NCBI GenBank assembly: GCA_003222455.1
Contig: QHWF01000011.1
Coordinates: 1 to 32,641 of the forward strand
Reading direction: 5' to 3'
DNA: 32,641 nucleotides
Source: Acidobacteriota bacterium
GTDB taxonomy: Bacteria > Acidobacteriota > Vicinamibacteria > Vicinamibacterales > CAVVIG01
Shown one piece after another: positions 8,559 to 32,641 of the stretch (position 1 is the first letter of the stretch; each line of letters opens with the position of its first letter). The position numbers and the translations under genes were made by a program. The notes under the pieces are model-generated. The model ran no database searches. It saw only the letters and a list, made by a program, of their open reading frames with translations, and was not told where the DNA came from.

Positions 8559-9268
8559 TCGCGGCGAAGCTCCAGCCAGAGGTGCGCCATGTCGGAAATC
8601 GCGCGGCGAATGTTTTTTATGTTCGCCGAAGATGGCTGCCCGACTTCGCGAGGGTGGTAATCGACTTCGACTTCGACGACACAGAGGCCCTTCTTGTGCG
8701 CGCGGATGATGATCTCAGGCGTCACGAACGGCGTCGCGTCGGAGAGCGCCGGTTGCGTGAGAAGGACTCCCTTCTTGTAGACCTGAATGAAGTTGTAGTC
8801 GCGAAGGTGCGCCCCAAACAGAACATCCAGGAGCGTGCGGTTCGCCCATGAGACGAACCGTCGCTGAGCAGTCGTTCCCGGATACATCTTGCGAGCTGCG
8901 ACGACGATATCGGCGCGTGGAAAGTGTTCGAGGAGCAGCGGCAGATTCTCGAAATCAAAGGGGTAGTCCATGGCGTTGTGCGTGACGTACTCGTATTTCG
9001 CCAGAGCAAAACCCTTCCGCAGCACACCTCCCTGGCGGAGGTTCGTCTCGTTCTTGAGATGCGCCACTTCCGGGAACGTGCGCGCGAGCGCCGCCGCGAG
9101 CGCCGGCGTCCTGTCTTTGCTGCAGTCGTCGATGAGCAGGATCTCGAACGCCCCGACCATCCGCCGGAGTGACTCAACGGACCGGCGGATCGTTCGCTCG
9201 ATATTCCCTTCTTCGTTGTACGCGGGAAAGACGACCGAGAGACGAAGAGCGGGATAGCGCGCGGCCAC
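8555..9268 (-). CDS. Short soluble family-2 glycosyltransferase, DPM1-like (second candidate polyprenyl-phosphate sugar synthase)
   Basis: The track ORF 8555..9508 has a non-homologous extension overlapping the upstream gene. I chose GTG 9268 (VAARYPALRLSVVFPAYNEEGNIERTI...). Motifs are ILLIDDCSKDRT, the DPM1-type loop RRFVSWANRTLLDVLFGAHLRDYN and YHPREVGQPSS. The start codon choice is uncertain. Confidence 0.8.
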   Translation of the reverse strand: MAARYPALRLSVVFPAYNEEGNIERTIRRSVESLRRMVGAFEILLIDDCSKDRTPALAAALARTFPEVAHLKNETNLRQGGVLRKGFALAKYEYVTHNAMDYPFDFENLPLLLEHFPRADIVVAARKMYPGTTAQRRFVSWANRTLLDVLFGAHLRDYNFIQVYKKGVLLTQPALSDATPFVTPEIIIRAHKKGLCVVEVEVDYHPREVGQPSSANIKNIRRAISDMAHLWLELRRE

Positions 9269-9297
9269 AGAGAAGGCTTGGACTCGATCAGGTCTGG

Positions 9298-9966
9298 TTA
9301 GAGAAGGCGTTCCCAGTCGAATGTCGAATCGATCGGTCTGGCAATGCGCGCCGGAACGCCGTAGGCAAGAACGCTCGGCGGCAGATCCCTGGTCACCACC
9401 GAGCCAGCGCCAACGATTGTCCCGGCGCCAATCGTCACGCGGGGCGCAACGGTCACTCCCGCGGAGAGAAAGGCGCCGCGGCCGACCGTCACGCGGCCGG
9501 CCATGCATACGCCTGGACCCAGCGACGCGCCATCTTCAATGTGACAATCGTGCTCGACGATGCTCCCGGTATTCACGATCACATGACGGCCGACACGTGC
9601 ACCAGCGTTGACGATCGCGCCGGCAAAGACCACGGTCCCTTCTCCGACCGTTGCCGACGCGAGAATCACCGCCGACGGGTGCGTGACGCGCCCCCATGTT
9701 CGCCCCTTCCACGTGCGGGCGAACGCGAGGCGAACGTCGTTGTTGCCAATCGCCAGGATCGCCTCTCCCTCCAGATCAGCGAGCCGGGACGTCGGTCCCA
9801 CGACGCCGGCGCCAAGGATCTGTGTGCCCCGTACCGTCTCCGCATCGTCCAGGAAGCAGAACAATGCAGCCGGGATCTCCGAGCGCCACACATCGAGGAC
9901 CACGCGACCCTGTCCCCCCGCGCCGACGATGATCCGGACATCGCTTCGCGAACGGTCAGCCGTCAC
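9298..9966 (-). CDS. PglD/NeuD-type amino-sugar N-acetyltransferase (N-terminal Rossmann-like domain + LbH)
   Basis: ORF 9298..9966, 222 aa. Motifs are RIIVGAGGQGRVVLDV, then hexapeptide repeats (VGEGTVVFAGAIVNAGARVGRHVIVNTGSIVEHDCHIEDGASLGPGVCMAG...). The GTG start overlaps the upstream stop (GTGA). Confidence 0.85.
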   Translation of the reverse strand: MTADRSRSDVRIIVGAGGQGRVVLDVWRSEIPAALFCFLDDAETVRGTQILGAGVVGPTSRLADLEGEAILAIGNNDVRLAFARTWKGRTWGRVTHPSAVILASATVGEGTVVFAGAIVNAGARVGRHVIVNTGSIVEHDCHIEDGASLGPGVCMAGRVTVGRGAFLSAGVTVAPRVTIGAGTIVGAGSVVTRDLPPSVLAYGVPARIARPIDSTFDWERLL

Positions 9967-15355: not shown

Positions 15356-17881
15356 TCAACGAAACCATCGTGGATTCTCGACGAGCGGATACAGGTCCCG
15401 AATCACGAACCGCGCGCCCTGCGGTCCACCCACCAACGCGAGTCGGGCCTGTGAGTTCACGCGTGAGGGAGGATTGCCGCCAAGGTTCTCGAAGTGCCAT
15501 GCGCGGTAGGCGACATCATCACTTGGCGACATCACTGGAAGATCGGCCAGCCGCGCTCCGCGCGCATCAAGGAGTTGCCCCGTCAGCTGCCCCTCGGTCA
15601 CTCGCAGAAACACACCGATGCTCAAGCGATCCGTGCTGAAGGTTTTGAACGGCTCGACTGAGAGAATTTCACCGGGAAGCAGACTTGTCAGCATTCCTTC
15701 AGCCGTCGCGACGACCGGGCCCTTCGCGGTAAGGCTCGGTACGGCTCGAAGCCCCGGACGAAACGACTCGGACGCTCGCAGTTGCGCGCGGACCGATTCG
15801 TCGTAGAAAGACCGGTAGTGGTCTCGCGCCTTGCGGTCGAGGGTTGGGACCTCGGACAAGAGAGCCCATGTCATCATCACCCCGTAGGGATGTTCGGGAA
15901 ATCGGCGGAGGGCTTCTTCGAAAACGATCGGCCAAGCAGGATCCCCGAAGTACCGGGCGTAGCTGTAGAAGTGCGGGTTCTCCGGCCCTTCGACCAGTGC
16001 GCGTTTGTAGTACTGAAACATCAACTGCTTCACCGAATAGGCGCTGATCGGCTGGCCGGTGAGCGCCGTATAGGAGCCGAGGCGCTCGAGATAGCCGAAG
16101 AGCGCCCACGCGCCATACATGCTCACCGTCCCGGGCGCCTCCCCGCCCAGGGCGCGAAGAGCCTCTATTTCGCGGGCGAGCTCGGTCGGCGTGCGGAACG
16201 CCGCGCGGTCGATCAGACCGGCATGAACGGCTCGCCAGATGTGCGTGACATGGACTTCTTTCCGGAACTCACGAACGACCCAGGCGCCCGCCACGAGCAG
16301 CACGGCGGCCGCTGCAGCCAGCGGCGCCAGCCGGCGCCCCCGCGGCAATCGCCAGGCCGTCCACGTTTGGGAAGAAGGGCGCAGCCACGCCGGCGCGCCG
16401 CGCACGGCCACGACGGCGAGGCACGGCAGCGTGCACCAGAGCAGCGGAAGGCCCTTGAGCAGATACATGTTGTGGACGTGCATCAGGGCGAGCAACGTGT
16501 GCAGACCAAAGATCTCCCAGAAGATGAGGCCGATCAATGGCCACGCGGATGACGAACGCTGGCCGCCGAGCAGCACGATGAACCCGACGCCTAACGCCAA
16601 CCACACCACCGCTGTCCCGAGCGTCGCGTGTCCGCCATAGATCCCGTACGACAGATCTTTGTGAAACACGATCTGAACGGCGAAACGTTTCCACCACGCG
16701 TTCGGCAGCTCAGTCGGATGTCGAAAAAGTGTTTCGATCAGAAAGTGACGGCCCCAGGGCGGATACCCGTGATGAAACGCGTACGTCGGCGACAGTTGAC
16801 GCAGGTAGTAATCGCCGTCGTGGATCCAGCTGTTGTTGAAGTCGAGAATGAAATTCCCGAAATGGCTCGGACGTTCGTTGACGTACTGCACGACGTTGAC
16901 GAGCTTGAACTCGTCGCTGGCCGCCGTGTTCACGGCGCTGACGGGGCCGAGAAGGCTTGCGGAAAACTGCTGATACGGCCATTGCACCGAGGTGACGAGC
17001 GCGAAGAGGAGCACGGCGCGCCGGAAAATGTCCCAATTGCGCCCGACGGCTGCCACGGCAAACACAGAGGCAATCACGACCATTGCGTCGAGTCTGGTGG
17101 GAGGCAAACGAAAAAAAATGAGCAGCAACGCGTACAGCGCAAAGACCAACGCCGCCAACCCTTCCAGTGCCCACGCGCGGAACCACCCCCTGACCGGCGG
17201 CATGTCGCACAGGAACTGGGCGATCCCGACCAACGCAAAGGTATTGAACAGGTTCAGACGGAAGTCCGTGTACTGTAGGCTGGGACCGGATGGCGAAACG
17301 CTGAACCAGAGTATCGCCAGGCTGGCGAACCCAATGACCGAAGACCTGGACAGGCTCTTCGTGATGCAGAACAAGCAGACAATCCCAAACCATGATCCGA
17401 GGATTGCAAGAACAACCAGATAGATTTCTGAACGGTGAAGTACATCGATCACCCAGATGATCGGGACGACTTTCATGAAGAAGCTCTGGTACTCCGCGTA
17501 GTAGTAGTAGTAGGTCCAGGCCTGCGCGCATTCAGACGAATAAAAGGTCTGGGCCTCGCGATTGAACAAGCGGACCAGGCGGAGCAAGCGGACTGGCTCG
17601 AACCGGGAGCTCGCCTCGATACCTGCAATCGCGCCTTCGACCCGCTGCAGCGATTGCGCATGCAGCACCTCGACCCCCGGACACATCTCAAAGGGCCGGC
17701 GATGTACCTGAGAGAACACGATCTTGTCGTAGGTTCCAAACGCAGTCGTTCGAACGTAGTCGGATGCCGCTGTAAAGACCGTGCGGGTGTCCAACGGGGC
17801 CAATGAGAGACACGCTGCGCCGACCACCAGCGCTTCCAAAGCGTGGCGGATCCACGAAAGGCGCGACCAGGATTCAATCAT
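15356..17881 (-). CDS. Large polytopic membrane protein (841 aa) with a ~330-aa C-terminal soluble region; function unknown
   Basis: The track ORF 15356..19120 is inflated. Its first 413 aa are an alternative frame of the SGNH/DltD-like gene. ATG 17881 (MIESWSRLSW...) overlaps that gene's stop as ATGA. It has one N-terminal helix, a ~100-aa loop, many hydrophobic helices (VVLAILGSWFGIVCLFCI, LAALVFALYALLLIFF, WLALGVGFIVLLGG ...), then a helical and beta-rich tail. The membrane part is visibly AT-richer than its neighbours. Confidence 0.75.
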   Translation of the reverse strand: MIESWSRLSWIRHALEALVVGAACLSLAPLDTRTVFTAASDYVRTTAFGTYDKIVFSQVHRRPFEMCPGVEVLHAQSLQRVEGAIAGIEASSRFEPVRLLRLVRLFNREAQTFYSSECAQAWTYYYYYAEYQSFFMKVVPIIWVIDVLHRSEIYLVVLAILGSWFGIVCLFCITKSLSRSSVIGFASLAILWFSVSPSGPSLQYTDFRLNLFNTFALVGIAQFLCDMPPVRGWFRAWALEGLAALVFALYALLLIFFRLPPTRLDAMVVIASVFAVAAVGRNWDIFRRAVLLFALVTSVQWPYQQFSASLLGPVSAVNTAASDEFKLVNVVQYVNERPSHFGNFILDFNNSWIHDGDYYLRQLSPTYAFHHGYPPWGRHFLIETLFRHPTELPNAWWKRFAVQIVFHKDLSYGIYGGHATLGTAVVWLALGVGFIVLLGGQRSSSAWPLIGLIFWEIFGLHTLLALMHVHNMYLLKGLPLLWCTLPCLAVVAVRGAPAWLRPSSQTWTAWRLPRGRRLAPLAAAAAVLLVAGAWVVREFRKEVHVTHIWRAVHAGLIDRAAFRTPTELAREIEALRALGGEAPGTVSMYGAWALFGYLERLGSYTALTGQPISAYSVKQLMFQYYKRALVEGPENPHFYSYARYFGDPAWPIVFEEALRRFPEHPYGVMMTWALLSEVPTLDRKARDHYRSFYDESVRAQLRASESFRPGLRAVPSLTAKGPVVATAEGMLTSLLPGEILSVEPFKTFSTDRLSIGVFLRVTEGQLTGQLLDARGARLADLPVMSPSDDVAYRAWHFENLGGNPPSRVNSQARLALVGGPQGARFVIRDLYPLVENPRWFR

Positions 17882-19254
17882 CGCGAGGCGGCCTCGCGGC
17901 GGCCAAGGCTTTCGAGCATCCGCTCGATGGCGGCAATGTCTTCCACATTCGCCGAGGCATAGCGCTGTTGCGCGCGCGCCATCCCCGAGAGGTGCTCCTC
18001 GACGGTGGTACCGGCGACAAGCACGCCGAAATCGACAGGGAGTTTCTGGGCACCTTCGGTCTGGAAGATCCGGTCCATGAACATGTAGCCGACTTCGGTC
18101 TTGAAGTGAATGCTGTCGGCATAGAGGCGGAAGCCGGCGCGGCCCGTAGGCAAGTCGACGACGGGATCGGTGGTCACGCTCGTGTACCCGCCAAAGTCCC
18201 ACAGCGGGTAACGACGCTGGCCTGGATGCGTGTTGGCATCCTGCTCGAGAATGGCCGCCAGCCCACGTTCCCATTCGACGAACTGCGGCCACCATCCCAT
18301 CAGCCGAATCGCCTCGTACGATCGCGCGTGATGAGGCGAGAGATAAAACCGCAGGTCGACGCCGTGCGCGCGGGCAACCGACACCAGCCGGCGCATGGCC
18401 TCCAGAGAGGACCAGCCTTCGTTGTCCACGAACCGGAATGGCTGACCGGGCACGGGATAGATGCCGGCAATGATGACCCGGTCGCCATCGATCATCCCTT
18501 GCAGGAACTTGGACCGAGAGACGCGGTCGGGCGGTGCGGGTGGCGGGGGCGCGCCCTCGGCCGGACGCGGTCCGGGACCGACGCCTATCCCGAAATTGGG
18601 TCCGGTTCCCTTGAACCAGGTTCGCTCTGCCCAGAGCGACCCCGCACGCTGAACGAGCGGCTCCCAGAGTTTCGCTTGTGACGCGTACGTGTAATCGGCG
18701 GTGAACAGGCGCTGCCCGACAAACCGCGCCAGATCGCGGCGATAGGAAGGGCGCTGCGCCAGCGGAAGATCGAAGAACCCCGGCGACGTGGGCTTGTCGG
18801 CGGCGAACATATAGAACTCCAGCCCGATCACGGCCCGCCTCGGCGGGTGCAGCGCGACAACATGTTCGAACGCGGCCAGGAGCTCGCGGATGCTGACGCC
18901 CGGTAAGCCGAAGTTGTAGGCGGGCCGACCGTCGGCGTCCCGCAGCGGCGCGTAGCCGGAGTCGACGTACGACCAGACTGTTGAACTGCCGAACACCACT
19001 GACTGTGGCGCGTAGAATGCCACGTTCAGCATCTTCGCCTCGCGCGTTCCGTGTGGCACCGGCCAGGCGCCGCCGGCCGCCAGCGACAACTCCACCGCCG
19101 TCGGGTTCGCCGGGCGCCATCCGGCGACGCGGGCGTACCCAAGCGGGTCCATCACGATGTTCACGGTGGGAATGCTGCCCAGCAGAGCAGCGACCGCGAC
19201 GCCCATGGCGAACATGTACCGTCGGCCTTCCGGAGCGTCAGCGATCGTGCTCAA
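17878..19254 (-). CDS. Membrane-anchored SGNH/DltD-like partner protein of the MBOAT acyltransferase
   Basis: ORF 17878..19338. Candidate starts are TTG 19254 (TTGA overlap with the MBOAT stop) or ATG 19215. The amino-acid conservation ADAPEGRRYMF / ADSPQARRYMF with the paralogous fragment, upstream of that ATG, favours 19254. It has a single N-terminal TM helix, a block-I-like VVFGSST and a block-V-like YADSIHF (DxxH). Confidence 0.7.
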   Translation of the reverse strand: MSTIADAPEGRRYMFAMGVAVAALLGSIPTVNIVMDPLGYARVAGWRPANPTAVELSLAAGGAWPVPHGTREAKMLNVAFYAPQSVVFGSSTVWSYVDSGYAPLRDADGRPAYNFGLPGVSIRELLAAFEHVVALHPPRRAVIGLEFYMFAADKPTSPGFFDLPLAQRPSYRRDLARFVGQRLFTADYTYASQAKLWEPLVQRAGSLWAERTWFKGTGPNFGIGVGPGPRPAEGAPPPPAPPDRVSRSKFLQGMIDGDRVIIAGIYPVPGQPFRFVDNEGWSSLEAMRRLVSVARAHGVDLRFYLSPHHARSYEAIRLMGWWPQFVEWERGLAAILEQDANTHPGQRRYPLWDFGGYTSVTTDPVVDLPTGRAGFRLYADSIHFKTEVGYMFMDRIFQTEGAQKLPVDFGVLVAGTTVEEHLSGMARAQQRYASANVEDIAAIERMLESLGRREAASR

Positions 19255-22852: not shown

Positions 22853-24178
22853 TCAGCTGTGGGTTTTTCCTGAATTCCGGCGCAAGAGTCGCTTAACGAC
22901 CTCGCTGGGCGTGGCATCGAAGGCCGCCTGGAGATCGCCGAGCCGATCGTTGAGCCTGCCAAGCTGATCGTTCTGCCGCGCGATCGTCTGATCGCGTGTT
23001 GCGATCTCCTCATACAGCCGGGCGATGGTGCGATCGCGTTCCTCGACCGCACGATTCCGCTCTTCCTGGAACTCCGCCAGCAGGCGATCGCGCGTCGCGA
23101 CGTCGGCCTGCAGCTGGACCAGCAGCGGCTCCCGTTCAAGGTCGGCCAGCATCTGATCACGAACTACCACCTCGTGCTGCAGCTGCGCCAGCAACGGCTC
23201 CCGGTCGACGAGATCGTCAGCCTGAAACTCCGGACTGTCGTGCCGCATGGCTTCCCAGTGGCGTTCCGTCTCGACGAACAGCGTGCGCCACTCGGGGGCG
23301 GGGCCGGTGGCGGTCGTCGTCTCCCCGCGGCGGGACAGCGTCGTGATGTACTCGCGCTGCGTCGGGTCGGCCAGCATTTTCCAGAAGTTGGTCACGTCAC
23401 GGCCACTGAGCTCCGGCTGCTCATAACAGCTATAGCTGTACAACTCGATCGCCTTCACCTCGTGACCGACTTCGTTCAGCATCCACGCGACTTCAGGCGC
23501 GGTGTATTCACGGTGATGCCCTTCGTACGGAATCGGCGAGTAGAACTGCGCGGCCAGAGGCGGCCACACACTCTCGCCCCGCGCAAGTGCCTGACGCTTG
23601 TAGAGGTGCGCGAGGTTCGGGGTGTCGATCACCAGATGACCGCCCGGCTTCAGCACACGATTGATCGTGGTCAGCAATCCAAGAGGCGTATGAGGCACGT
23701 GCTCGATCACGCCGGCGCACAGCACCACGTCGTAGCCGCCATCAGGCAACCCCGCCAGAGCCCGGCCTGCGTCGTCGAAGTCGAGCAGCCGAATGCCGCG
23801 ACTCCGCATGAGCGACAACGGCGGTTCAAGCGTGCGTGCATACGTGCGATAGGCATCGACCGCATCGACGTCGAAACCCAGATCCGCGAACATGCCTGAA
23901 AAATTGCCGAAGTACGCGCCGTAGTCCAGCAGGCGTCCCTGACGGACGCCTGCGCGCCTCAGCGCGCCGGCCGCATGAATCATTCGCGCAATGCTGCAAC
24001 GGAGATAGTTGGACCAATCGTTCTCCCTGAGCGCCGGCGAATGACGCTCCAGGGCATCGTAAGACAGCCCGTGGATCACGCCCAGCACGCGATCCACCGC
24101 TGCGATGGCGACGGGCAGCTCCTCCGGGAAGTCGTCCGCGAGACACGCGGGGAAATGAAGGTCGAGCGTCTCGTTCAT
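22853..24178 (-). CDS. Class I SAM-dependent methyltransferase with a ~110-aa C-terminal coiled-coil tail containing tandem repeats
   Basis: The track ORF is 22853..24199. ATG 24178 overlaps the ABC ATPase stop (ATGA). MT motifs are RLLDYGAYFGNFSGMFADLGFDVDAVD, YDVVLCAGVIEHV and LKPGGHLVIDTPN. The tail reads DREPLLAQLQHEVVVRDQMLADLE / REPLLVQLQADVATRDRLLAEFQ / EERNRAVEERDRTIARLYEEIATRDQTIARQNDQLGRLNDRLGDLQ. Confidence 0.8.
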   Translation of the reverse strand: MNETLDLHFPACLADDFPEELPVAIAAVDRVLGVIHGLSYDALERHSPALRENDWSNYLRCSIARMIHAAGALRRAGVRQGRLLDYGAYFGNFSGMFADLGFDVDAVDAYRTYARTLEPPLSLMRSRGIRLLDFDDAGRALAGLPDGGYDVVLCAGVIEHVPHTPLGLLTTINRVLKPGGHLVIDTPNLAHLYKRQALARGESVWPPLAAQFYSPIPYEGHHREYTAPEVAWMLNEVGHEVKAIELYSYSCYEQPELSGRDVTNFWKMLADPTQREYITTLSRRGETTTATGPAPEWRTLFVETERHWEAMRHDSPEFQADDLVDREPLLAQLQHEVVVRDQMLADLEREPLLVQLQADVATRDRLLAEFQEERNRAVEERDRTIARLYEEIATRDQTIARQNDQLGRLNDRLGDLQAAFDATPSEVVKRLLRRNSGKTHS

Positions 24179-25947
24179 GACGAACCAACCAGGCCCCAAT
24201 CGGCCTCAGAGACCTGAAGCGTACCGCGGCCGATCAGGCCCGAGCCCTCCACCGCGAACTCAAACATGCGGGAGATACAGCAATAGACCTGCTCGTTGAT
24301 GGAATAAAACACGGTTTGCTCGCGATCGTAGTAACCCTCGCTGGAAATCATGATCGTGACGGAGTAGTGGCCATCGGTCAGCATCAGCCGGGGCACTCTG
24401 AGCCGAATCGTGCCGCTGCCCCGTTCCCTCGCACGGAAGCACAGATTTCTGCTGATGAAGCGGCAGACGTCCAGCACGCCTTCGCGATGGATGGCCACGA
24501 CGACCTGCGCCCGTTCGTCCAGCTTCGGGTCGGCGATTCGGTAGCCGATTTCCAGAGTGGCGAGCTCGCCATGACGTAAAAAGAACGCGGCCTGCCCTTC
24601 CGCATCGACAAAGCCCGCTTGGGTCACGCTGATGGCGCCGCTTCCCTGGACGCCGGCCGTGTTCAGGACAACGGCCTCGCTCCGCGACTGAAACGCGGCG
24701 AATGGGACGGACAGCGTCGCGGTAGCCCAGCGCCCGACTTCTGCCGGCAGTGCGCCAAGCCTTGCCGCACGGTCATCGACATGGGCACTCACGACGACGT
24801 CAGCGGCTTCGTCCATCCAGAACTCGATTTCAACCTCGAGAAGGGCGTCACGATCCAGCACCGCCGCCGGCACCGGATAGACGGCGGCCACTTTGTGAAA
24901 AGAACTGCCGTAGTTGAGGAAGGGCCGCGCCGATCGTCCCTGCCAGTCGGTGTTCTCGCCCCACCCCCCGCCCGCGCGTTGCAAATGCGGTTTGTCGGGC
25001 TCGTCAAACGGCGTCACGGCCGGCTCAATCGAGCTTCTGTATTTTTCAATGACAACAGACAACGACCGCAGGTAGAGGGGCGACGGCAGGGGACGATTGT
25101 CTCGACTCTGCAACTCGATGATCATGTGCCGCACGGGAGCAACTTCGATGGGCTCCAGCTGCTTCAACCGTTCCTGCTGCTTCATCCGCAGGCGATTCTC
25201 CTCTTGCAGGCGGATCGAATCTTCGTAGGCTTTCACGACCGATGGTGCAGCCCCATCCATCAGCACGCGACCGCGGTCGATCCAGACGACGCGGTTGCAC
25301 ATCTTGACGGCCGAGTAGATGTCGTGGGTGACCAGCAGCAGCGTCGTACCCTGCCGGTCACACAGATCCCGCATGCGTTGGTAGCTTTTTGATGCGAAGT
25401 ACGCGTCTCCAACGCCCAGAATTTCGTCGAGCACGAGCAGCTCCGGCACAATCGCCGTCGCCGTGGAAAACATCAGTCGTACGCCCATCCCGGAGGAGTA
25501 GGTCTTCACCGGCTGGTCGATGTACTCCTCGAGCTCGGCAAAGTCGACGATCTCCAGGTATTTCGCCTCGGCCTGCCGCCCGACGACACCGAGTTGCGCG
25601 AGATACGCAAAGACATTCTGCCGGCCGGTGAAATCGGGATGAAACCCGGTGCCGATCTGCAACAGGGCGTGCGCGTGGCCCTTCACATCGATCGCGCCCG
25701 ATGACGGCTCAATCACTCGCGTGATCAGCTTGAGCAGCGTGCTCTTCCCGGCGCCGTTGCGGCCGATGATCGCCACCTTCTCGCCGCGGCGAATCTCCAG
25801 GTTGACGCCATCGAGCGCTGCGTGCTCAGTGTAGGCGCCGCGCCGTTTGCCCAGCATCCCGAACATGTCGAGGAAGCGGTAGCCCGGTCCCGCGTACAGC
25901 CGGTACACCTTGCTCAAATCGCGGGCTCGAATCACCGTGTCGTTCAT
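24175..25947 (-). CDS. Wzt/TagH-type polysaccharide-export ABC transporter ATP-binding protein with a ~340-aa C-terminal extension
   Basis: ORF 24175..25947, 590 aa. It has Walker A GRNGAGKST, the signature YSSGMGVRL, Walker B LLVLDE and an H-loop VTHD. The early motif KVYRLY...F.DMFG is typical of Wzt/TagH. A short coiled segment (QEENRLRMKQQERLKQLE) follows, then two beta-rich regions. The last ~150 aa (FLRHGELATLEIGYRI...VVVAIHREGVLDVC...LTDGHYSVTIMISSEG) resemble the Wzt C-terminal glycan-binding sandwich. Confidence 0.88.
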   Translation of the reverse strand: MNDTVIRARDLSKVYRLYAGPGYRFLDMFGMLGKRRGAYTEHAALDGVNLEIRRGEKVAIIGRNGAGKSTLLKLITRVIEPSSGAIDVKGHAHALLQIGTGFHPDFTGRQNVFAYLAQLGVVGRQAEAKYLEIVDFAELEEYIDQPVKTYSSGMGVRLMFSTATAIVPELLVLDEILGVGDAYFASKSYQRMRDLCDRQGTTLLLVTHDIYSAVKMCNRVVWIDRGRVLMDGAAPSVVKAYEDSIRLQEENRLRMKQQERLKQLEPIEVAPVRHMIIELQSRDNRPLPSPLYLRSLSVVIEKYRSSIEPAVTPFDEPDKPHLQRAGGGWGENTDWQGRSARPFLNYGSSFHKVAAVYPVPAAVLDRDALLEVEIEFWMDEAADVVVSAHVDDRAARLGALPAEVGRWATATLSVPFAAFQSRSEAVVLNTAGVQGSGAISVTQAGFVDAEGQAAFFLRHGELATLEIGYRIADPKLDERAQVVVAIHREGVLDVCRFISRNLCFRARERGSGTIRLRVPRLMLTDGHYSVTIMISSEGYYDREQTVFYSINEQVYCCISRMFEFAVEGSGLIGRGTLQVSEADWGLVGSS

Positions 25948-25955
25948 CGCGAGGC

Positions 25956-27608
25956 TTACCGAACCCGATCCGCCGGCGCGTCGAACCAGCCGAGGTGAGT
26001 GATCCGGAAGTCGTTATCTCGCCGGCCAGTCGGCAGGCAATGCGCGACGACCACGGTGTACTCCCCAGTCGTCGGCGGTTGCCATATGATCGTGAAGGGA
26101 CCCGGCACATCGACATTGTCGTAGTGCACCCACTGATTCTGCCGCTGCACGCCGACCGTCACACATCCGCCGATCAGGGCGCCCGTCGCCATCAGCACCT
26201 TGTTTGGTGTACCCGGTCCAGCACGGGAAGGCCGGGTCATGATGACGTACGCGGTCGGCGTGGCTGCCTGGCCTCTGACAGTGAAGACGCCGTTGTCGAC
26301 TTTCACCACGGGATCGATCCACGAGGTTTCCGCCTGGCCCAACGGATGAAACGACGGTCCCTCAAAGCGCGGTAGTGGAGCGAGCGAGACCGCGGCCACC
26401 GCGCGCGCCTGCCCGACGCGTCTCGTGACGAGGTTGTCGCCCAGCTGTCCGTAGAATCCGAATCCCCAGGTCCAGACCGTCCCGTCGGACTGGAGCGCCA
26501 GCATATGTGAATAACCGGACGCGATCGCGACCACGGAGCTGACGCCCACAGCCTTCACGGGCCGGCTGCGCGGCTCCCATGTCCCGTCGTCCAACTGTCC
26601 GTAGAGGTTGTCTCCCCAGGTCCACACCTGTCCGTCGCTCGTCAGGGCGGCTGAATGATCTTCTCCCGCTGCGATCATCGTGACGTTTTGGAGTCGCTCG
26701 ACCGCAGCGGCTGCCGGCTCGTCCGCAGCAGCCGTCGGCGACGGCAGACTGTCCGGCCGTTTGAATCCCGGCGGTTGAAAGGGCGTCATCATCTGACGAT
26801 CGACGCTGCTCATCACGGAAGACCTGCGACCGAGCTGACCGAACGCATTACCGCCCCAGGTCCAGACGGTGCCGCCTCTCACCAACACGAGCGTATGGAA
26901 CTGGCCCGCGGCCACGGCGACCACATCGCGCACCGCTGAAACTTCGACGGGCACAAGTCGAAGTCTCAGGACGGCGTCACCGAGCTGGCCGTGTGTGTTT
27001 TGCCCCCACATCAACACGCGTCCGGTTCGTACGACGGCTGCCGAGTGGTAGAACCCTGCGGCAATCGCGGATACATTCGATACGCCCTGGAGGCGCAGAG
27101 GTCGAAGACTCTCCGTCGTTGTCCCCGAGCCGAGCTGGCCGTAGTGATTGTCGCCCCACGCCCACACGGAGCCATCCGCGCCGAGCGCCATCGAGTGGAT
27201 GTACCCCGCCGCGATCCCCACGATGTGGTCGAGGCCGGCCACACGTGCCGGCACGGTGCGCAACGTGCGGCTGCCGTCGCCAAGCTCGCCCCACAAGTTG
27301 TCTCCCCAAGCCCACACCGTTCCGTCGCTTCGCAACGCGAGCGTGTGGTTGGAGCCAGCGGCGACAGCGGTGACGTCGAAAAGATTCTTCGCCCAGGCGC
27401 GGCCAACGGTTTCGTATCGACTCCTCAGCGCTCCATCTCCGGCTTGTCCGTATAAGCCAGACCCCCAGCTCCACACCGTACCATCGGGTCTGACGACGAC
27501 CGAATGCAGCTCGCCACCAGCCAGAACAGCCGCCGACGCGAACGCGCACGGTAACGCCGCCGCGACAGCGAGCGCGAGCGCGCCGCGCCTGAGCACGAGC
27601 CAGACCAT
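25956..27608 (-). CDS. Secreted seven-bladed RCC1-repeat (beta-propeller) protein with an unassigned ~140-aa C-terminal domain
   Basis: The track ORF 25956..27638 starts at a TTG. I prefer ATG 27608 (MVWLVLRRGALALAVAAALPCAFASAA, a Sec-type signal peptide with AFA-S). Seven repeats have the form H(S/T)xAL..DG.VW.WG.N..GQLGDG. Confidence 0.85.
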   Translation of the reverse strand: MVWLVLRRGALALAVAAALPCAFASAAVLAGGELHSVVVRPDGTVWSWGSGLYGQAGDGALRSRYETVGRAWAKNLFDVTAVAAGSNHTLALRSDGTVWAWGDNLWGELGDGSRTLRTVPARVAGLDHIVGIAAGYIHSMALGADGSVWAWGDNHYGQLGSGTTTESLRPLRLQGVSNVSAIAAGFYHSAAVVRTGRVLMWGQNTHGQLGDAVLRLRLVPVEVSAVRDVVAVAAGQFHTLVLVRGGTVWTWGGNAFGQLGRRSSVMSSVDRQMMTPFQPPGFKRPDSLPSPTAAADEPAAAAVERLQNVTMIAAGEDHSAALTSDGQVWTWGDNLYGQLDDGTWEPRSRPVKAVGVSSVVAIASGYSHMLALQSDGTVWTWGFGFYGQLGDNLVTRRVGQARAVAAVSLAPLPRFEGPSFHPLGQAETSWIDPVVKVDNGVFTVRGQAATPTAYVIMTRPSRAGPGTPNKVLMATGALIGGCVTVGVQRQNQWVHYDNVDVPGPFTIIWQPPTTGEYTVVVAHCLPTGRRDNDFRITHLGWFDAPADRVR

Positions 27609-27622
27609 TGAATGGAAAGAGG

Positions 27623-30580
27623 TCAGATGCCGAGCCAACCGAGATGGGTTATCTGGAAGTCGTTGTCCGGACGATCGTCCGGCAGACAGTGTGCGATGAC
27701 GATGACGTATTCACCTGTCGTCGGCGGGGGCCACCGGAGCGTAAACGGTCCGTGCCGATTGAAATTCTTGTAAAAGATCCATTGGTTGCGCTCCTGGACG
27801 CCAACCGTGACACATCCGTCGTTCAATACGCCCGTCGCGACCAGGACCTGGCGATCCTGGTCCGGACCGGCCCTGGACGGCGACGCCATGATCACGTAGG
27901 CCGTCGGCGATTCAGCCTTGCCCTTGACAAAGAACGAGCCGTCTTTGAATTGCACGATCGGAGCGGCCCAGGCCGTCTCTGCCCGGCCCACGGAGTGAAA
28001 AGAGGGCGCGTCGAAGCGGGGCCCCGGCACGAGCGAGAGCGCGGCGATGGTGCGCGGCCTCGCGACACGTCGCGTCGAGGTATTGTCACCAAGTTGTCCG
28101 TCGCTGCCGAATCCCCACGTGAAGATCGTTCCGTCGGATTTGAGCGCCAGCACATGCGCATGTCCCGACGCGATCGCCGTCACGGATCCCACGAGCGCTG
28201 CTCTCACCGGTCTGCGGCGAACGTCCCAGGTCCCGTCGCCCAGTTGCCCGTAGAGGTTGTCGCCCCACGTCCAGACCTGACCGTCGCCGGTCAGCGCAAC
28301 GGAGTGATCTTCACCCGCCGCAACCATCGTGACTCCGTGGAGACCAGGCACGACGGCCAGAGTCAGCTCGTCTGGATGACCACTCGAGGAGGCCGTCATT
28401 GGATCGCGACCGAGCTGTCCAAACGTGTTGCCGCCGCAGGTCCACACGGTGCCGTCGCTGCGCAGCACGAGCGTATGAAACTGGCCGGCCGCAACGGCCG
28501 CCGCGTCGCCCGCCGGCATGACGTCAACGGGAATCGCGCGCGGCTGACGTAGCCCGTCACCAAGTTGTCCGTGCTTATCGTCCCCCCAGGTCCAGACATG
28601 TCCGGCGCGATCGACCGCGGCCGAGTGAAAAAAGCCGGCGGTAATCGTCGTGGCGGTCGGGAGGCCCTGCACCCGGATTGGTTTGAGACTGACTGACGTC
28701 GCCCCGGATCCGATCTGACCGTAGTGGTTGTCACCCCACGCCCACAGCGAGCCGTCGTTCGCGAGGGCCATCGAGTGAATATACCCGGCGGCGATCGCCA
28801 CGATGTGGCCGAGACCGGGCACCTGCGTGGGAACGTCGCGCGAGGTGCGACTACCGTCGCCAAGCTCACCCCACAAATTGTCTCCCCACGCCCACACGGT
28901 GCCGTCTTTCCTCAGCGCCAGCGTATGGTTCCCGCCAGCCGCAACAGCGATGGCGTCAAACAGATTCTTCGCCGGCGCGCTGTCGGCCGTCGTATGGTCG
29001 GTGACACCGTCTCCGAGCTGTCCCAACGAGGCGGAACCCCAGCTCCAGACCGTCCCGTCCGGTTTCAGCACGACGCTATGCATCTGTCCCGCTGCCATCA
29101 CGGCCGCATCCGACCGGGGCGAGTGAAGAGCGGCCGCCAGGCCGCAAGCAGCCACAACGGCTCTGCGGCGCGTGAGCAGAAGCGCCAGACGCCGAGTGGG
29201 TTCCACGATCCCAATTGCGGCAAAGGCGAAGAGGCAGCCGTACGCCGGGACCGTCTTTCGGAGCTCTACGTAGAACACAAGACTGAACGCGATGAGAAAC
29301 GCGCTCGGGGCGACGGCCAGCACCGCCGCCGTCGCGGCGGCCCTGCGTGTCAGAACCACGCCGATGCCGATGAAGACGAACACGGCGACGACGGGTAACG
29401 CCGCATCGGCGATGCCGAGCCATTTGCGTAGAGTTTCACGCGCCTCCGGGGGGTCGCTCGGCGTGTATATGCCAGAGGCGGAAACCTGCGCGACGCTCAG
29501 CAGCCGAGGCAGTCGCAATTCGACAAGATTCGTAAGGTGTCGAGTGAATCCAGGCGACGGCACAACCGAGTAGAGAATGAAATCGCGAGTCGTTGCCGCT
29601 TGCTGCCCCGCGTTGCAGCCGGTGCAGTTCTCCTCAATCCAGTTCCAGTAGTATTTGTCGTCGAAGCCCAGGCCCCACGGATTGGGCAGCTCGCCGAACG
29701 ATGCGTATGCGAGCTGCCAGAAGCCGCCACGGACAAAGCTGAACTGACCGAACATCCGACTGTTGCGCATCGCCCACGGCGTCAGCACGAGGTACACGAG
29801 CACCTGCGCCGCCAGAAAGTACGGAACGAGCCTGAGAGCACGACCGTCGAGAACCGCGGCCGCGATCGCGGCGGCCGTGACGACGAGCGGCAGCGTGATG
29901 CTGGTGCTGTTCATCGCCGCACCGCAGAACGCAGCGCCGGCGATCAGCAGGGCCGCGCCCCATGGCCGGCCGCCGTCACGCAAGCGATCCCACGCCCCCA
30001 CCGCACCATAGGACGTGGCCAGGAACCAGAAACTATCGGTCGAGGCCGCGACGGTGAGATTGGCCAGGAATGCATGGGCCGGGGAGACGGCATACAGCGC
30101 CGCCCCCACGAGACCAGCGGCCGAAGACCACAACCGCCGGCCGATGCCGAAGACAAAGAGACACCCCGCCGCATCCAGCAGCGCCTGCATCCGCTGGGAA
30201 TACGCGTAACGGAGGTGCCCTCCAAGCCAATAGCTGATCGCGAACCACACCGAGTATCCAGCTGAATGTGCCGATCCGGGATACACGATCACACCGGGCT
30301 TTTCGTCATCAACCGGCAGCAGTTCCTCCAGATCGACCATGGAGGGGCGGTTCTCCTGTGCCCTGGCGGCGCGGTCCACCATGTCTGCATTCGCCACCCA
30401 GCCGCGTCCGGCGAGCAGGTTCCGGCCCATCTCCGCGTCCGCGAGCGTCAAGCCGGCAACCCACGGCGCTCCCGGCCGGTAAGCATGAAGAAGCCACAAC
30501 CGAAAACCTACGGCAACCGCGAAAATCACGGCAAGGCACGCGACCGTCAATTTCGTCAGCGGCTTGAGAGAGGCGCTCAT
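27623..30580 (-). CDS. Fusion protein: ArnT/PMT-like GT-C membrane glycosyltransferase domain (~480 aa) + seven-bladed RCC1 propeller + the same C-terminal domain as the downstream paralogue
   Basis: ORF 27623..30580, 985 aa, with ATG 30580 overlapping the upstream stop (ATGA). After TM1, the first loop carries ADAEMGRNLLAGRGWV, compared with the ArnT-type DE..Y....REML.SGDWV motif. Many helices follow. A signal-peptide-like last helix, RRRAVVAACGLAAALHSPRSDAAV, sits directly before the RCC1 repeats. These repeats are closely similar (roughly two-thirds of positions by eye) to those of the 25956..27608 protein. Confidence 0.8.
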   Translation of the reverse strand: MSASLKPLTKLTVACLAVIFAVAVGFRLWLLHAYRPGAPWVAGLTLADAEMGRNLLAGRGWVANADMVDRAARAQENRPSMVDLEELLPVDDEKPGVIVYPGSAHSAGYSVWFAISYWLGGHLRYAYSQRMQALLDAAGCLFVFGIGRRLWSSAAGLVGAALYAVSPAHAFLANLTVAASTDSFWFLATSYGAVGAWDRLRDGGRPWGAALLIAGAAFCGAAMNSTSITLPLVVTAAAIAAAVLDGRALRLVPYFLAAQVLVYLVLTPWAMRNSRMFGQFSFVRGGFWQLAYASFGELPNPWGLGFDDKYYWNWIEENCTGCNAGQQAATTRDFILYSVVPSPGFTRHLTNLVELRLPRLLSVAQVSASGIYTPSDPPEARETLRKWLGIADAALPVVAVFVFIGIGVVLTRRAAATAAVLAVAPSAFLIAFSLVFYVELRKTVPAYGCLFAFAAIGIVEPTRRLALLLTRRRAVVAACGLAAALHSPRSDAAVMAAGQMHSVVLKPDGTVWSWGSASLGQLGDGVTDHTTADSAPAKNLFDAIAVAAGGNHTLALRKDGTVWAWGDNLWGELGDGSRTSRDVPTQVPGLGHIVAIAAGYIHSMALANDGSLWAWGDNHYGQIGSGATSVSLKPIRVQGLPTATTITAGFFHSAAVDRAGHVWTWGDDKHGQLGDGLRQPRAIPVDVMPAGDAAAVAAGQFHTLVLRSDGTVWTCGGNTFGQLGRDPMTASSSGHPDELTLAVVPGLHGVTMVAAGEDHSVALTGDGQVWTWGDNLYGQLGDGTWDVRRRPVRAALVGSVTAIASGHAHVLALKSDGTIFTWGFGSDGQLGDNTSTRRVARPRTIAALSLVPGPRFDAPSFHSVGRAETAWAAPIVQFKDGSFFVKGKAESPTAYVIMASPSRAGPDQDRQVLVATGVLNDGCVTVGVQERNQWIFYKNFNRHGPFTLRWPPPTTGEYVIVIAHCLPDDRPDNDFQITHLGWLGI

Positions 30581-32523
30581 AGCGGTGTTTCCAGCGGAAT
30601 CCTCAGCCGTTCAAACCAGTCCCGGGTGCGCCAGTCCGCTGGCAGCAGCAGATCCAGCCAGAGCCGCTCGCTCGAGTCCTGGCGCATCGTCGAAACCGAT
30701 TGCACTGTGTCGGCGTCTTGCGCGCTCATCGCCAGACCGTCGAAGACATGCGCGGCGCCATATTGATAGATGGGCATCATCAGCGTTGATGTGCTCCCCG
30801 AGGCCGAGCAGGGCTGGCTGAACGTGTGGTCCCAGACGGCATTCGGCGGCCGATACGTGGCCGTCACGCTGATCGGTCTGCCATCTCGACATCTGAACTT
30901 GGCGACCAGATAGTCGCTTGTCATCTCGTCGGCTTTCCCGCTGGACCGGCGGTCGCGCAGGCTGATCCCCTCGACCCGCAGCATCACTCGGTCGGGTTCA
31001 TGTGCGGCACGAGCCACGTGCCGCTCGTCGAGAAGCATTTGCTCGTAGCACTCCACGAGACGCAACATTCGGTTCTGCTGATAGGCCCTTGCAGAGGCAA
31101 GCGCAGCCACAGCGCACACGCCGATGAGCGACAGACAGAGGACCGCCCGGAAGGCTGGCTTGGCGAAGCGGGCCCAAGCGTCCCCGAACGCGTTCGTGTC
31201 CAGCATCGCCCGACCCGCCAGCAGTATGGCCTGCGTAAAGAAGCCCGCCAGCCACCAGGAAATGAACTCGAGATGAAAGAAATGCCGGCGTTGGAACACG
31301 AGAGAGACGTAGGCAGAGAGAAACACCGCGACAAAGGCGATGAACCATCCCGCTCGCAGATCCCTGGCAAAAACAAGAAAGAGGCCCGCCACAGGGATCA
31401 ACACGCCCAGGCCGCTCAACTGCAACACCCGGATCGTCGCGGCAATGACGCGCAGCACGAGGTCGCCCGGGAATGTCGTCCAGAAGTCCGTGAGAAGACG
31501 CGTCGACACGTCCTGCATCTCGCGGCTGAAGAAATAGACGGTTGCCGTCGTACCAAGCACGCGATGTCCGTAGCTGTTGATGAGGACCGTGATGTGGCTG
31601 TCGTCGAAGACCAGTCCGTAGTCGTAGAGCGGGCTCACGGCGTGCATGGCCTCGGTCGCCCAGTCCTGGCCGCCAAGGACTTGAACAGCAAACAGGCTGC
31701 CTGCGGGCCCGAAGAAATTACGGTAGATCATGGTCCCGCCGCCGATGGCCACGCCGGCAATGACGCAGAGCGTTGCCAACGCCTTCCTGGACGATCCACC
31801 GGGATTCCGCCGGACGAAGATGAGTGTGGTCGCGAGGGCGAGCGGCACGGCGGCCATCACGTCAGTCTTGAATCCGATGCCGAATCCAGCCGCGAGACCC
31901 GATGCCAGCGCCGGCGCCCAGAGGGACTTTCCCTGCGCGTCGCGGCGAACGACGACGCCGCACAACGCCACCGCGGCGAGAATCCACGGCGCCTTCTCGT
32001 ACTCAATCGGCAGGCCCGTTGCCCGGAGCTGCAAAGGCGACCATACAAGTCCCGCCGTGCACGCGAGCGCGATGACCCGCCACATGCCGAGGCGGAACAT
32101 GAGGTAGGCAATCGCGCCGGTCATCGCAAACATCCCCGATTGAAACGTGATGAAGCCGTTGATCGTCGGCCCGACGATCCGAAACCATGAGCTGAGGGCA
32201 CGATGAAAGTACTCTTGACGCTGCCAGGAGATGCCGATTTCGATGAGAGGCATTCCGGCGATGGCGCTGCACGGAAAATACTCCACCTTCTGCGCGAGGA
32301 ACGCCTGCCATTGTGGCAACGCTTTCACCGCGACCGGGTCGGGCACCCAGCCTGGCCGCCCAGTGCAGGGCACCAGGAGATCTTCAATCCACGGAGCGTC
32401 GTGGTAGTAGGGCTGCAGATGGCGGCGCGCGACGCCATAGGCGACCATCGCCACTACCACGGCCAACGCGATGTCGATCGCCAAGGGCGACCGGAGCGCC
32501 CGCCGCACCGCCGAACCGGTCAT
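30577..32523 (-). CDS. Large polytopic membrane protein (648 aa) with a ~170-aa C-terminal soluble region; function unknown
   Basis: The track ORF is 30577..32628. ATG 32523 (MTGSAVRRALRSPLAIDIALAVVVAMVAYGV) has AAGG 6 nt upstream. The upstream 35 codons from GTG 32628 stay open with fairly high GC3, so a longer N-terminus is possible. The layout is TM1, a ~90-aa loop, at least 10 hydrophobic helices, and then a soluble tail. Confidence 0.7.
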   Translation of the reverse strand: MTGSAVRRALRSPLAIDIALAVVVAMVAYGVARRHLQPYYHDAPWIEDLLVPCTGRPGWVPDPVAVKALPQWQAFLAQKVEYFPCSAIAGMPLIEIGISWQRQEYFHRALSSWFRIVGPTINGFITFQSGMFAMTGAIAYLMFRLGMWRVIALACTAGLVWSPLQLRATGLPIEYEKAPWILAAVALCGVVVRRDAQGKSLWAPALASGLAAGFGIGFKTDVMAAVPLALATTLIFVRRNPGGSSRKALATLCVIAGVAIGGGTMIYRNFFGPAGSLFAVQVLGGQDWATEAMHAVSPLYDYGLVFDDSHITVLINSYGHRVLGTTATVYFFSREMQDVSTRLLTDFWTTFPGDLVLRVIAATIRVLQLSGLGVLIPVAGLFLVFARDLRAGWFIAFVAVFLSAYVSLVFQRRHFFHLEFISWWLAGFFTQAILLAGRAMLDTNAFGDAWARFAKPAFRAVLCLSLIGVCAVAALASARAYQQNRMLRLVECYEQMLLDERHVARAAHEPDRVMLRVEGISLRDRRSSGKADEMTSDYLVAKFRCRDGRPISVTATYRPPNAVWDHTFSQPCSASGSTSTLMMPIYQYGAAHVFDGLAMSAQDADTVQSVSTMRQDSSERLWLDLLLPADWRTRDWFERLRIPLETPL

Positions 32524-32641
32524 GCCTTTGCGACCGTCCCGCCTGCGCTCGCGCGGTACTTCGTGCCGCACGACCCGCAGGCCGCCGACGCCGGCGGCTT
32601 CGAGCCGGACGCCAGCTTCACTCCACACTCACAGATCCACC

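Follow-up and report, generated by a model that had tools for sequence, protein, structure and literature searches.

A predicted GT-C-fold membrane enzyme fused to an RCC1-type propeller in a glycan export locus of an Acidobacteriota bacterium

Why would an integral membrane glycosyltransferase be joined to an RCC1 beta-propeller in a single bacterial polypeptide, and on what might such a protein act? The question is raised by a stretch of 32,641 nucleotides from an Acidobacteriota bacterium (contig QHWF01000011.1 of assembly GCA_003222455.1; hereafter the window, meaning this whole stretch), in which one gene (27623..30580, minus strand) specifies a protein of 985 residues that is predicted to comprise a GT-C core, an extra transmembrane (TM) helix, an RCC1 propeller and a domain resembling a carbohydrate-binding module (CBM). 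A preliminary description had portrayed this protein, hereafter the fusion protein, as an ArnT-like enzyme with a periplasmic propeller, and had placed it at the core of an undescribed glycosylation system. All window coordinates given below refer to the minus strand, on which every gene of the surrounding glycan cluster lies.

The fusion is genuine and is not an artefact of assembly. The gene starts with an ATG that overlaps the stop codon of the upstream gene (ATGA), and an identical 985-residue protein is on record from five contigs. Moreover, an independent ENA scaffold from the CRIT18-1 metagenome (L012) matches the window at 99.5–99.9% identity throughout this region, also where the membrane domain passes into the propeller. 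On that scaffold the fusion is called as two genes, of 839 and 135 residues, because a 35-N scaffold gap interrupts the last RCC1 blades (5912..5946 of this public scaffold, which is from the same organism), and the database entries P0229 and P0030 are fragments because they derive from the gap-split scaffold. Mis-assembly as the origin of the 985-residue open reading frame (ORF) was rejected on these grounds.

The N-terminal membrane domain (residues 1–462; 29195..30580) is polytopic, as the preliminary description had it, by both hydropathy and an AlphaFold model, and its assignment to the GT-C fold draws on the AlphaFold model, on Foldseek comparisons, on matches of its homologues to PMT_2 and on the alternation of Lys and Arg residues (K/R) between successive loops. 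In particular, the model, which was built on an alignment of homologues, reached a predicted local distance difference test score (pLDDT) of 90.1 and a predicted template modelling score (pTM) of 0.90. When this model was compared with the PDB using Foldseek, ranks 1–32 were occupied exclusively by GT-C enzymes (AglB, STT3, PglB, ArnT, ALG9, AftA/AftB, Pmt4, DPY19 and ALG6), with probabilities of 0.66–1.00 over these ranks and of at least 0.97 over ranks 1–31, and the first match that was not a GT-C enzyme had a probability of 0.12. The oligosaccharyltransferases AglB, STT3 and PglB came out on top (E-values of 2e-6 to 2e-3), ahead of ArnT (5f15; E=9e-4), with template modelling scores that were modest (0.35–0.49) and do not discriminate among GT-C subfamilies.

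Sequence comparisons point in the same general direction but do not support a specific relationship with ArnT. A homologue search with the N-terminal domain retrieved 29 relatives (39–59% identity), all from metagenomes or metagenome-assembled genomes (MAGs) and a few of them named 'glycosyltransferase family 39'. Fourteen of the 29 match PF13231 (PMT_2) over nearly all of the profile, relatives covering 158 of its 160 positions, the best of them at about the threshold (26.5 bits against a gathering score of 26.1 bits). The preliminary description had expected such a match on residues 1–480 of the fusion protein itself; it is found in the relatives only, and the fusion protein does not match PF13231 at E≤1. 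Searches of the domain, of the family profile and of the homologue P0015 against PDB sequences with phmmer and hmmsearch gave chance matches only, and alignment of the family profile with E. coli K-12 ArnT using hhalign was not significant (probability 0.8%, E=0.072), for which reason the label 'ArnT-like' was dropped. Resemblances to ArnT (GT83) and PMT_2 proteins nevertheless extend beyond the predicted fold to the helix after TM1 (AE..R..LA...W) and to a GY..W...S..WL.G segment, and the window, like the ArnT system, holds DegT (ArnB-like) and GT2 (ArnC-like) genes. Pfam and NCBIfam scans of the window ORFs revealed none of the other arn operon genes sought (ArnA, ArnD and ArnE/F), with neither a formyltransferase/decarboxylase nor a deformylase nor an SMR-type flippase among them, and the C-terminal part of the fusion protein is an RCC1 propeller rather than the periplasmic domain of ArnT. 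The modelled structure and the relatives together suggest that the N-terminal domain is a GT-C-fold enzyme of a divergent PMT_2-related family that is not specifically ArnT-like.

Conservation within this family singles out a candidate active-site region. Residues 45–61 (LADAEMGRNLLAGRGWV) lie immediately C-terminal of TM1 and contain the helix of the first periplasmic loop (residues 46–61; 30398..30445), with the motif D48-A-E50-M-x-R-N-L-x-x-G-R-G-W. M51, R53, N54, L55, G58 and G60 are invariant across the family, and D48, A49, E50, R59 and W61 are, with them, almost invariant in the motif; D48 is kept in 26 of the 27 sequences that cover the position, as is E50, which is replaced by Asp in the remaining one. 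D48 and E50 are thus conserved acidic residues of the first extracytoplasmic loop, within the helix after TM1, and the catalytic Asp/Glu residues of GT-C enzymes sit just after TM1 (PMC11127046). By conservation and position, residues 46–61 are therefore a candidate for the region of the catalytic acidic residue. The resemblance of this loop to the catalytic loop of ArnT, on which the preliminary description had relied, holds as to place, since the motif aligns with ArnT AEISREMLASGDWI at the equivalent position, but is marginal as to sequence, with a local score of 36 that was equalled or beaten by 32 of 500 shuffles. Other strongly conserved residues are H105-x-x-G-Y-x-x-W, T181-D182, N224-S225, P268-W-x-x-R-N and E439-x-R441, together with several in a large conserved loop (residues 278–385; 29426..29749) that includes an invariant PNPWG block (299–303), D308, Y311, W314 and C319-x-x-C322.

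On which side of the membrane the propeller lies is indicated most directly by relatives in which the two parts are separate genes. In the fusion protein the membrane domain is followed by an Arg-rich, predicted cytoplasmic linker (RR...RRR), a hydrophobic helix (AVVAACGLAAALH, 13–14 residues) and an S-D-A motif (29114..29194). The same layout recurs in all six fusions that we found: the last core TM helix, an Arg/Lys-rich stretch, a hydrophobic segment of 13–19 residues (13–14 in the fusion protein and in the truncated copy L009, and 17–19 in the fusions of clade B, one of two clades discussed below) and the first blade within about 6–8 residues. At two closely related loci, L017 and L018, the GT-C gene stops after a K/R-rich tail and overlaps, through ATGA, a separate RCC1 gene, whose product begins with a canonical signal peptide (MKMRVAASAAALGLMAFALAQPAVSA followed by AILGAGDQHSV in L017; MIGSPWRSLIAVATAWFLASASDQA followed by HIVGGGELHSV in L018). 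Because the RCC1 gene begins there with a signal peptide, the linker helix occupies a signal peptide position. The linker helix can also be aligned without gaps to the signal peptide of a secreted paralogue encoded in the window, hydrophobic region on hydrophobic region and RR on RR; that alignment alone is weak, being of low identity in an Ala/Leu-rich region, and it is through the split relatives that the predicted equivalence becomes solid. The helix thus appears to be a signal peptide that has been retained, or a signal anchor, and to lead the chain out of the cytoplasm; its position would therefore leave the tail of the GT-C core in the cytoplasm and the propeller outside.

Two further features agree with this orientation. 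The close stand-alone homologues end in tails with 4–6 K/R and 0–1 D/E, and homologues of 550 residues have an Arg-rich segment ahead of TM1. In addition, C923 and C965 of the C-terminal domain are both present in clade A and in the paralogue and both absent from clade B, a co-variation that is as expected for a disulfide and supports a periplasmic location. A periplasmic propeller, as put forward in the preliminary description, is thus supported by the signal peptides of the split relatives, by the K/R-rich tail and by the co-varying Cys pair. For the protein as a whole we infer TM1, a long periplasmic loop with juxtamembrane helices, six TM helices, the loop of residues 278–385, which loop charge alternation and the canonical GT-C layout of seven TM helices plus a loop would place in the periplasm, and three TM helices; after these ten core helices would come the cytoplasmic tail and then the eleventh helix, giving 11 TM helices with the N terminus inside and the C terminus outside. 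K/R alternates cleanly in this ten-plus-one model (means of 1.83, 0, 2.0, 0 and 2.34 in successive short loops), and the model matches the layout of seven TM helices plus a loop seen in ArnT and in protein mannosyltransferases (PMTs). A topology of 12 or 13 TM helices with a cytoplasmic PNPWG loop was rejected, since it would put nine K/R in the short periplasmic loops as against four in the cytoplasmic ones.

The periplasmic part consists of two domains. The first is a seven-bladed RCC1-type propeller (about residues 493–845; 28046..29104), recognized by Pfam and by its blade signatures: WD40_RLD (PF25390) matches with E=1.1e-114, RCC1 (PF00415) and RCC1_2 (PF13540) match in seven stretches each, and seven W-x-W-G...GQLG signatures are visible, in full agreement with the seven blades anticipated between residues 490 and 850. 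The second, which contains Cys923 and Cys965 (residues 846–985; 27626..28045), is tentatively a CBM-like beta-jelly-roll. An AlphaFold model built on a four-sequence alignment has nine strands (pLDDT 67, pTM 0.65), and the best Foldseek matches of this moderate-confidence model in the PDB are to CBM4, a porphyran-binding CBM, CBM16, CBM61 and Cry toxin domain III (E-values of 1e-4 to 5e-3, template modelling scores of 0.5–0.58). Among 5.8 billion proteins searched, this domain had almost no sequence relatives.

Even in very large databases the architecture is seldom encountered. In all, six fused and two split versions were found, usually beside a gene for a Wzt exporter ATPase, in soil-metagenome bacteria that are mostly Acidobacteriota MAGs. 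Besides the fusion protein, the fused versions comprise P0029, a 997-residue orthologue from an uncultured Acidobacterium MAG (L005; 58% identity over the full length), the truncated copy on a Gemmatimonadales-binned contig (L009), and two proteins of GCA_016307145.1, of 964 residues (57% identity) and 1039 residues (P0217; 46% identity). A full-length HMMER search of 1.84 billion representatives was dominated by giant multi-RCC1 proteins, with two fusion clusters visible among the best 150, so that its tally of fusions is a lower bound and no census. Full-text literature searches retrieved no publication that pairs RCC1 with a GT-C enzyme. Neither a membrane domain of a non-glycosyltransferase family, nor a cytoplasmic propeller, nor a common and already characterized architecture was found, each of which the preliminary description had named as counting against its proposal. 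As a separate observation, the two proteins of GCA_016307145.1 are paralogous GT-C–RCC1 fusions within 10 kb of one another (locus L015, 1849..13120), one in clade A and one in clade B; they are 46% identical to each other's relatives, and genes for Wzt, a GT2 enzyme and an AsnB-type amidotransferase lie between them.

The window also encodes the secreted paralogue (25956..27638; probable start ATG at 27608), which has RCC1 and CBM-like parts, a signal peptide (MVWLVLRRGALALAVAAALPCAFA followed by SAAV) and 62% identity to residues 490–983 of the fusion protein; a 23-residue Ser/Pro-rich insertion separates two of its blades. In a distance tree of the periplasmic part, the paralogue falls inside fusion clade A as sister to the fusion protein of the window, to which it is 65% identical, whereas the latter is 55–56% identical to L005 or to the clade A protein of L015 (L015a). 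L005 and L015 have no secreted paralogue, and Wzt directly follows the fusion there. Because the paralogue lies within the fusion clade and is missing from L005 and L015, it would have arisen later, when the 3' half of the fusion gene was duplicated. These comparisons indicate a lineage-specific partial tandem duplicate in which the eleventh helix was apparently reused as a signal peptide. The suggestion that the linker helix is a fossil signal peptide is supported, since a signal peptide does occupy its position in L017 and L018, but the paralogue as the ancestor of that signal peptide was rejected because it nests inside the fusion clade. In a tree of the membrane domain, the split pairs (P0001–P0004) fall between the two fusion clades, and fusion or fission would therefore have occurred more than once.

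What might act beside such a protein is suggested by the glycan cluster. From its start, the cluster runs through a membrane protein of 648 or 683 residues, the fusion protein, the secreted paralogue, Wzt, a coiled-coil methyltransferase, an AsnB-type amidotransferase, a DltB-like MBOAT protein, a large membrane protein, a GFO/IDH oxidoreductase, acetyltransferases, dehydratases/epimerases, three DegT aminotransferases, a nucleotide-sugar dehydrogenase, a NUDIX hydrolase, two GT2 enzymes and a C-methyltransferase. Wzt (24175..25947) is an exporter ATPase of the ATP-binding cassette (ABC) type with a C-terminal carbohydrate-binding domain (Pfam ABC_tran and Wzt_C; NCBIfam galactan and teichoic-acid exporter ATPases). 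Its gene adjoins a GT-C gene in five loci, coming after the fusion in L005 and L015 and before a stand-alone GT-C gene in L002 and L003, and the order Wzm–Wzt–GT-C–NUDIX occurs in two Acidobacteria MAGs. Next to Wzt lies the gene for the methyltransferase (22853..24199; Pfam Methyltransf_23/11), whose C-terminal coiled coil of about 100 residues (residues 330–430) makes it a candidate WbdD-like chain terminator. A Wzt protein with a Wzt_C domain beside a coiled-coil methyltransferase is the signature of termination-coupled export of the WbdD/Wzt type, in which the pairing of the terminator with the CBM of Wzt has been described (PMC11127046). The locus is thus an ABC-transporter-dependent glycan pathway with termination-coupled export, as in E. 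coli O9a-type systems (PMC11127046). The two GT2 glycosyltransferases (both Pfam Glycos_transf_2) are candidate polyprenyl-phosphate sugar synthases; the best NCBIfam match of one (8555..9508) is ArnC (1e-10), and those of the other (3179..3976) are AglJ, dolichyl-phosphate hexose transferase, PpgS and ArnC.

The protein encoded immediately upstream, whose gene is translationally coupled to that of the fusion (30577..32628; likely true length 648 residues, start 32523), has 47 homologues that carry no precomputed Pfam domain in the search output. Its family profile aligns with that of the GT-C family over 367 colinear columns (hhalign E=0.001, probability 21%), three of 36 members match PMT_2 and one a TMEM260-like model, and an E-D pair followed by GRPGW aligns with the DAEM...GRGW motif of the fusion protein. 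A homologue (50% identity) also adjoins the fusion in L005. By these comparisons the upstream protein is probably another GT-C-like enzyme, though a highly divergent one, and its C-terminal part would form a soluble domain of about 170 residues.

These findings raise the possibility, to which we give an even chance, that the fusion protein is an inner-membrane GT-C enzyme that glycosylates a polymer in the periplasm after export, with the propeller and CBM-like module holding the acceptor. The comparisons show the fold, the order of the domains, how fused and split forms are related and the genomic association with Wzt; the topology and the CBM-like assignment are predictions, and what serves as donor, what serves as acceptor and whether the propeller binds it are matters of hypothesis. 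In outline, undecaprenyl diphosphate would be the carrier on which a glycan rich in amino and uronic sugars is assembled in the cytoplasm; the WbdD-like methyltransferase would cap this glycan, and Wzm/Wzt would export it. The propeller and the CBM-like beta-sandwich, periplasmic because the helix derived from a retained signal peptide would bring the chain back out, might then capture the polymer and present it to the GT-C site, which D48/E50 of the first loop and the large loop bearing PNPWG and CxxC would together form on the periplasmic face. That site would attach a sugar as a side chain, drawn from a polyprenyl-phosphate-sugar donor that a DPM1/ArnC-like GT2 enzyme of the locus would make, and the upstream 648-residue protein would probably act, as a second GT-C-like enzyme, in the same series of steps. 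Functional coupling between the GT-C and RCC1 parts is reflected in their being fused in six cases and adjacent in two.

The closest documented precedent, by analogy, is GT136 ORF12 of Citrobacter youngae O1/O2, part of a three-component periplasmic pentofuranosylation system (Kelly et al. 2024, PMC11127046). In the published model ORF12 has 11 TM helices; its catalytic Asp lies in a small periplasmic domain that follows TM1, and a beta-rich periplasmic CBM after TM11 binds the unmodified O-polysaccharide. The enzyme works on polymer that has already been exported, in a Wzm/Wzt pathway equipped with a WbdD-like terminator and a Wzt CBM (PMC11127046). The inferred layout of the fusion protein and the type of locus that encodes it are those of ORF12, but the two have no detectable sequence relationship. 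The fusion protein differs in addition in having an RCC1 propeller between the last TM helix and the CBM-like domain, in a last TM helix that appears to be a retained signal peptide, and in a window locus in which neither a phosphoribose synthase nor a flippase of the MATE or GtrA type was recognized. There is also a likeness in concept to GtrA/GtrB/GtrC systems and to the Klebsiella ABC-pathway variants, in which a GT2 synthase and a GT-C enzyme modify a polymer in the periplasm, a concept that extends to ABC-transporter-dependent O-antigens (PMC11127046); here, however, no GtrA-like flippase was recognized, the GT2 enzymes have no TM anchor of the GtrB type, and the GT-C protein carries large periplasmic modules. 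Appended acceptor-binding modules likewise link the fusion protein to EmbA/B/C, AftD, PMT1/2 and TfpW. PMT1/2 have MIR domains as their extracytoplasmic module, and TfpW is said to have TPR repeats. EmbA/B/C and AftD have appended CBMs (PMC11127046). None of these has an RCC1 propeller, nor is any of them known to occur both split and fused, with a signal peptide as the link.

That a GT-C core with an extracytoplasmic acceptor module acts on exported polysaccharide is already established (GT136, Emb/AftD, PMT-MIR). Because GT-C enzymes with C-terminal periplasmic acceptor-binding modules have been described (PMC11127046), and because the cluster is a recognizable ABC-transporter-dependent one, to call the protein the core of an undescribed glycosylation system was too strong. 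What is new is the RCC1 propeller as an appended periplasmic module. GT-C decoration of exported polysaccharides creates much of the diversity of bacterial surfaces, and the holding of a polymer acceptor by a GT-C enzyme is known for few cases, all of them CBM-based. The architecture would place bacterial RCC1-repeat proteins, of which there are many but hardly any with an assigned function, in a concrete functional context for the first time, and the fused and split pairs, related through a signal peptide, amount to a natural experiment on topology and on the importance of tethering. Moreover, the two membrane-protein families described here, neither of which has a Pfam model, are probable new GT-C families of Acidobacteriota-type soil bacteria.

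Several observations weigh against glycosylation of an exported polymer by the fusion protein. Its own sequence matches no glycosyltransferase model of Pfam or NCBIfam; the topology rests on charge rules and homology; and the model of the C-terminal domain is only of moderate confidence (pLDDT 67). RCC1 propellers are better known for binding proteins than glycans. We found no gene for a Wzm permease in the window, and no recognizable GtrA, MATE or ArnE/F flippase among its Pfam-scanned ORFs. The NCBIfam matches of the GT2 enzymes score 27–41 bits, far under the cutoffs of 325–529 bits, and both enzymes lack the TM anchor typical of GtrB. Finally, the best structural matches by Foldseek are oligosaccharyltransferases and not monosaccharide transferases.

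This last point bears on a different assignment of donor and acceptor, in which the protein would be an en-bloc ligase or oligosaccharyltransferase: the exported undecaprenyl-diphosphate polymer would be the donor, the whole chain would pass to a lipid or protein, and the propeller would bind that acceptor. The ranking of AglB, STT3 and PglB ahead of ArnT would fit such an activity, as would the placing of the GT-C gene beside Wzt in five loci, which is where one would look for a ligase that acts after export, and the window ORFs scanned revealed no WaaL-type gene. Oligosaccharyltransferases also have, after the last TM helix, a C-terminal periplasmic or lumenal domain that binds the acceptor. 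The domain of the fusion protein is nevertheless a different one from that of AglB, STT3 and PglB; the WWDxG motif of these enzymes is absent, with no WW dipeptide anywhere in the 985 residues; and sequence searches with the N-terminal domain gave no match to oligosaccharyltransferases of the PDB. Structural scores of the size obtained here, as noted, do not separate GT-C subfamilies, and in sequence the affinity lies with PMT_2, whose members use polyprenyl-monophosphate sugars. Many members of the GT-C family have no periplasmic domain at all, and the two DPM1/ArnC-like GT2 enzymes of the locus would be left without a partner. On balance we consider an en-bloc ligase improbable. Glycosylation of the RCC1 proteins themselves seems to us less probable by far: a PMT-like O-glycosyltransferase of family GT39, acting on Ser/Thr, would have the fused or secreted RCC1-plus-CBM proteins as its acceptors or glyco-carriers, and some homologues are indeed named for that family and match PMT_2, while the neighbouring secreted paralogue has a Ser/Pro/Thr-rich insertion. 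That naming, however, stems from borderline profile matches only, most members of the GT-C family have no RCC1 neighbour, and the genes with which it is tightly associated are those of a polysaccharide export ATPase and a chain terminator rather than of protein secretion.

The fate of the linker helix allows for another outcome, one we think doubtful, in which signal peptidase I cuts the protein into a stand-alone GT-C enzyme and a soluble RCC1-plus-CBM protein, functionally identical to the split pairs; the soluble product could then be a polymer chaperone or a chain-handling factor, not a tethered acceptor-binding domain. In the fusion protein and in L009 the hydrophobic segment, at 13–14 residues, has the length of a signal peptide and not that of a TM helix, and a small-x-small sequence, which resembles a signal peptidase I site, stands just before the first blade in clade A (SDA in the window, 29114..29140; ASA in L009; SGA in L015a; VYA in L005). 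Just such a soluble protein is produced by the split relatives and by the paralogue in the window. The longer segments of clade B (17–19 residues), which are followed by basic residues, look more like a stable anchor, however; it would be unusual for a signal peptide that lies internally, behind ten TM helices, to be cleaved; and the retention of fused and secreted copies in one locus suggests that the two forms are not equivalent. More speculatively still in its mechanism, and in our view with a similarly small chance of being right, the two divergent GT-C-like enzymes and the propeller might be parts of an unrecognized periplasmic machine coupled to Wzt, in which the propeller threads or clamps the emerging polymer. 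The propeller may be modular in such a machine, being of the RCC1 type here and of the WD40 type at the loci L013 and L014, and fused, split or duplicated; instead of being a simple tether of the CBM kind, it may clamp the polymer so that modification is processive or the polymer is handed over; and its signal peptide might be cleaved, in which case a single gene would supply the membrane enzyme together with a soluble partner. The reading that we prefer remains that a tethered enzyme glycosylates the exported polymer.

At L013 (2365..7157) and L014 (1354..6187), a member of the upstream, 683-residue family lies adjacent to a secreted WD40, not RCC1, propeller and to a membrane protein of 489–491 residues. 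This arrangement suggests a recurring module of a GT-C-like protein plus a periplasmic propeller, with interchangeable types of propeller. The 489-residue protein itself was considered as a GT-C homologue and not retained, the comparison being not significant (hhalign probability 0.5%).

Several other genes of the window have features of their own. The 1254-residue ORF at 15356..19120 has about 460 initial codons that are Arg-rich and non-coding in appearance; the C-terminal part, of about 780 residues, contains at least eight TM helices and is 24% identical (E=5e-39) to an 837-residue membrane protein of L015. In L015 as well the 837-residue protein adjoins an MBOAT gene, of which it is thus a conserved partner, and assignment of the ORF to the 683-residue family was rejected in favour of this different family. 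A 198-residue protein with 4–5 TM helices (7962..8558), whose gene overlaps the stop of the ArnC-like GT2 gene by 4 bp, has no family match; over 113 residues it is 45% identical to part of the 837-residue protein of L015, which leaves a candidate flippase and a fragment of a gene as two possible readings of it. Lastly, the NUDIX hydrolase (5636..6211) recurs in L001–L004 and L015, mostly directly downstream of a gene of the GT-C family, and might hydrolyse nucleotide sugars or process polyprenyl diphosphate.

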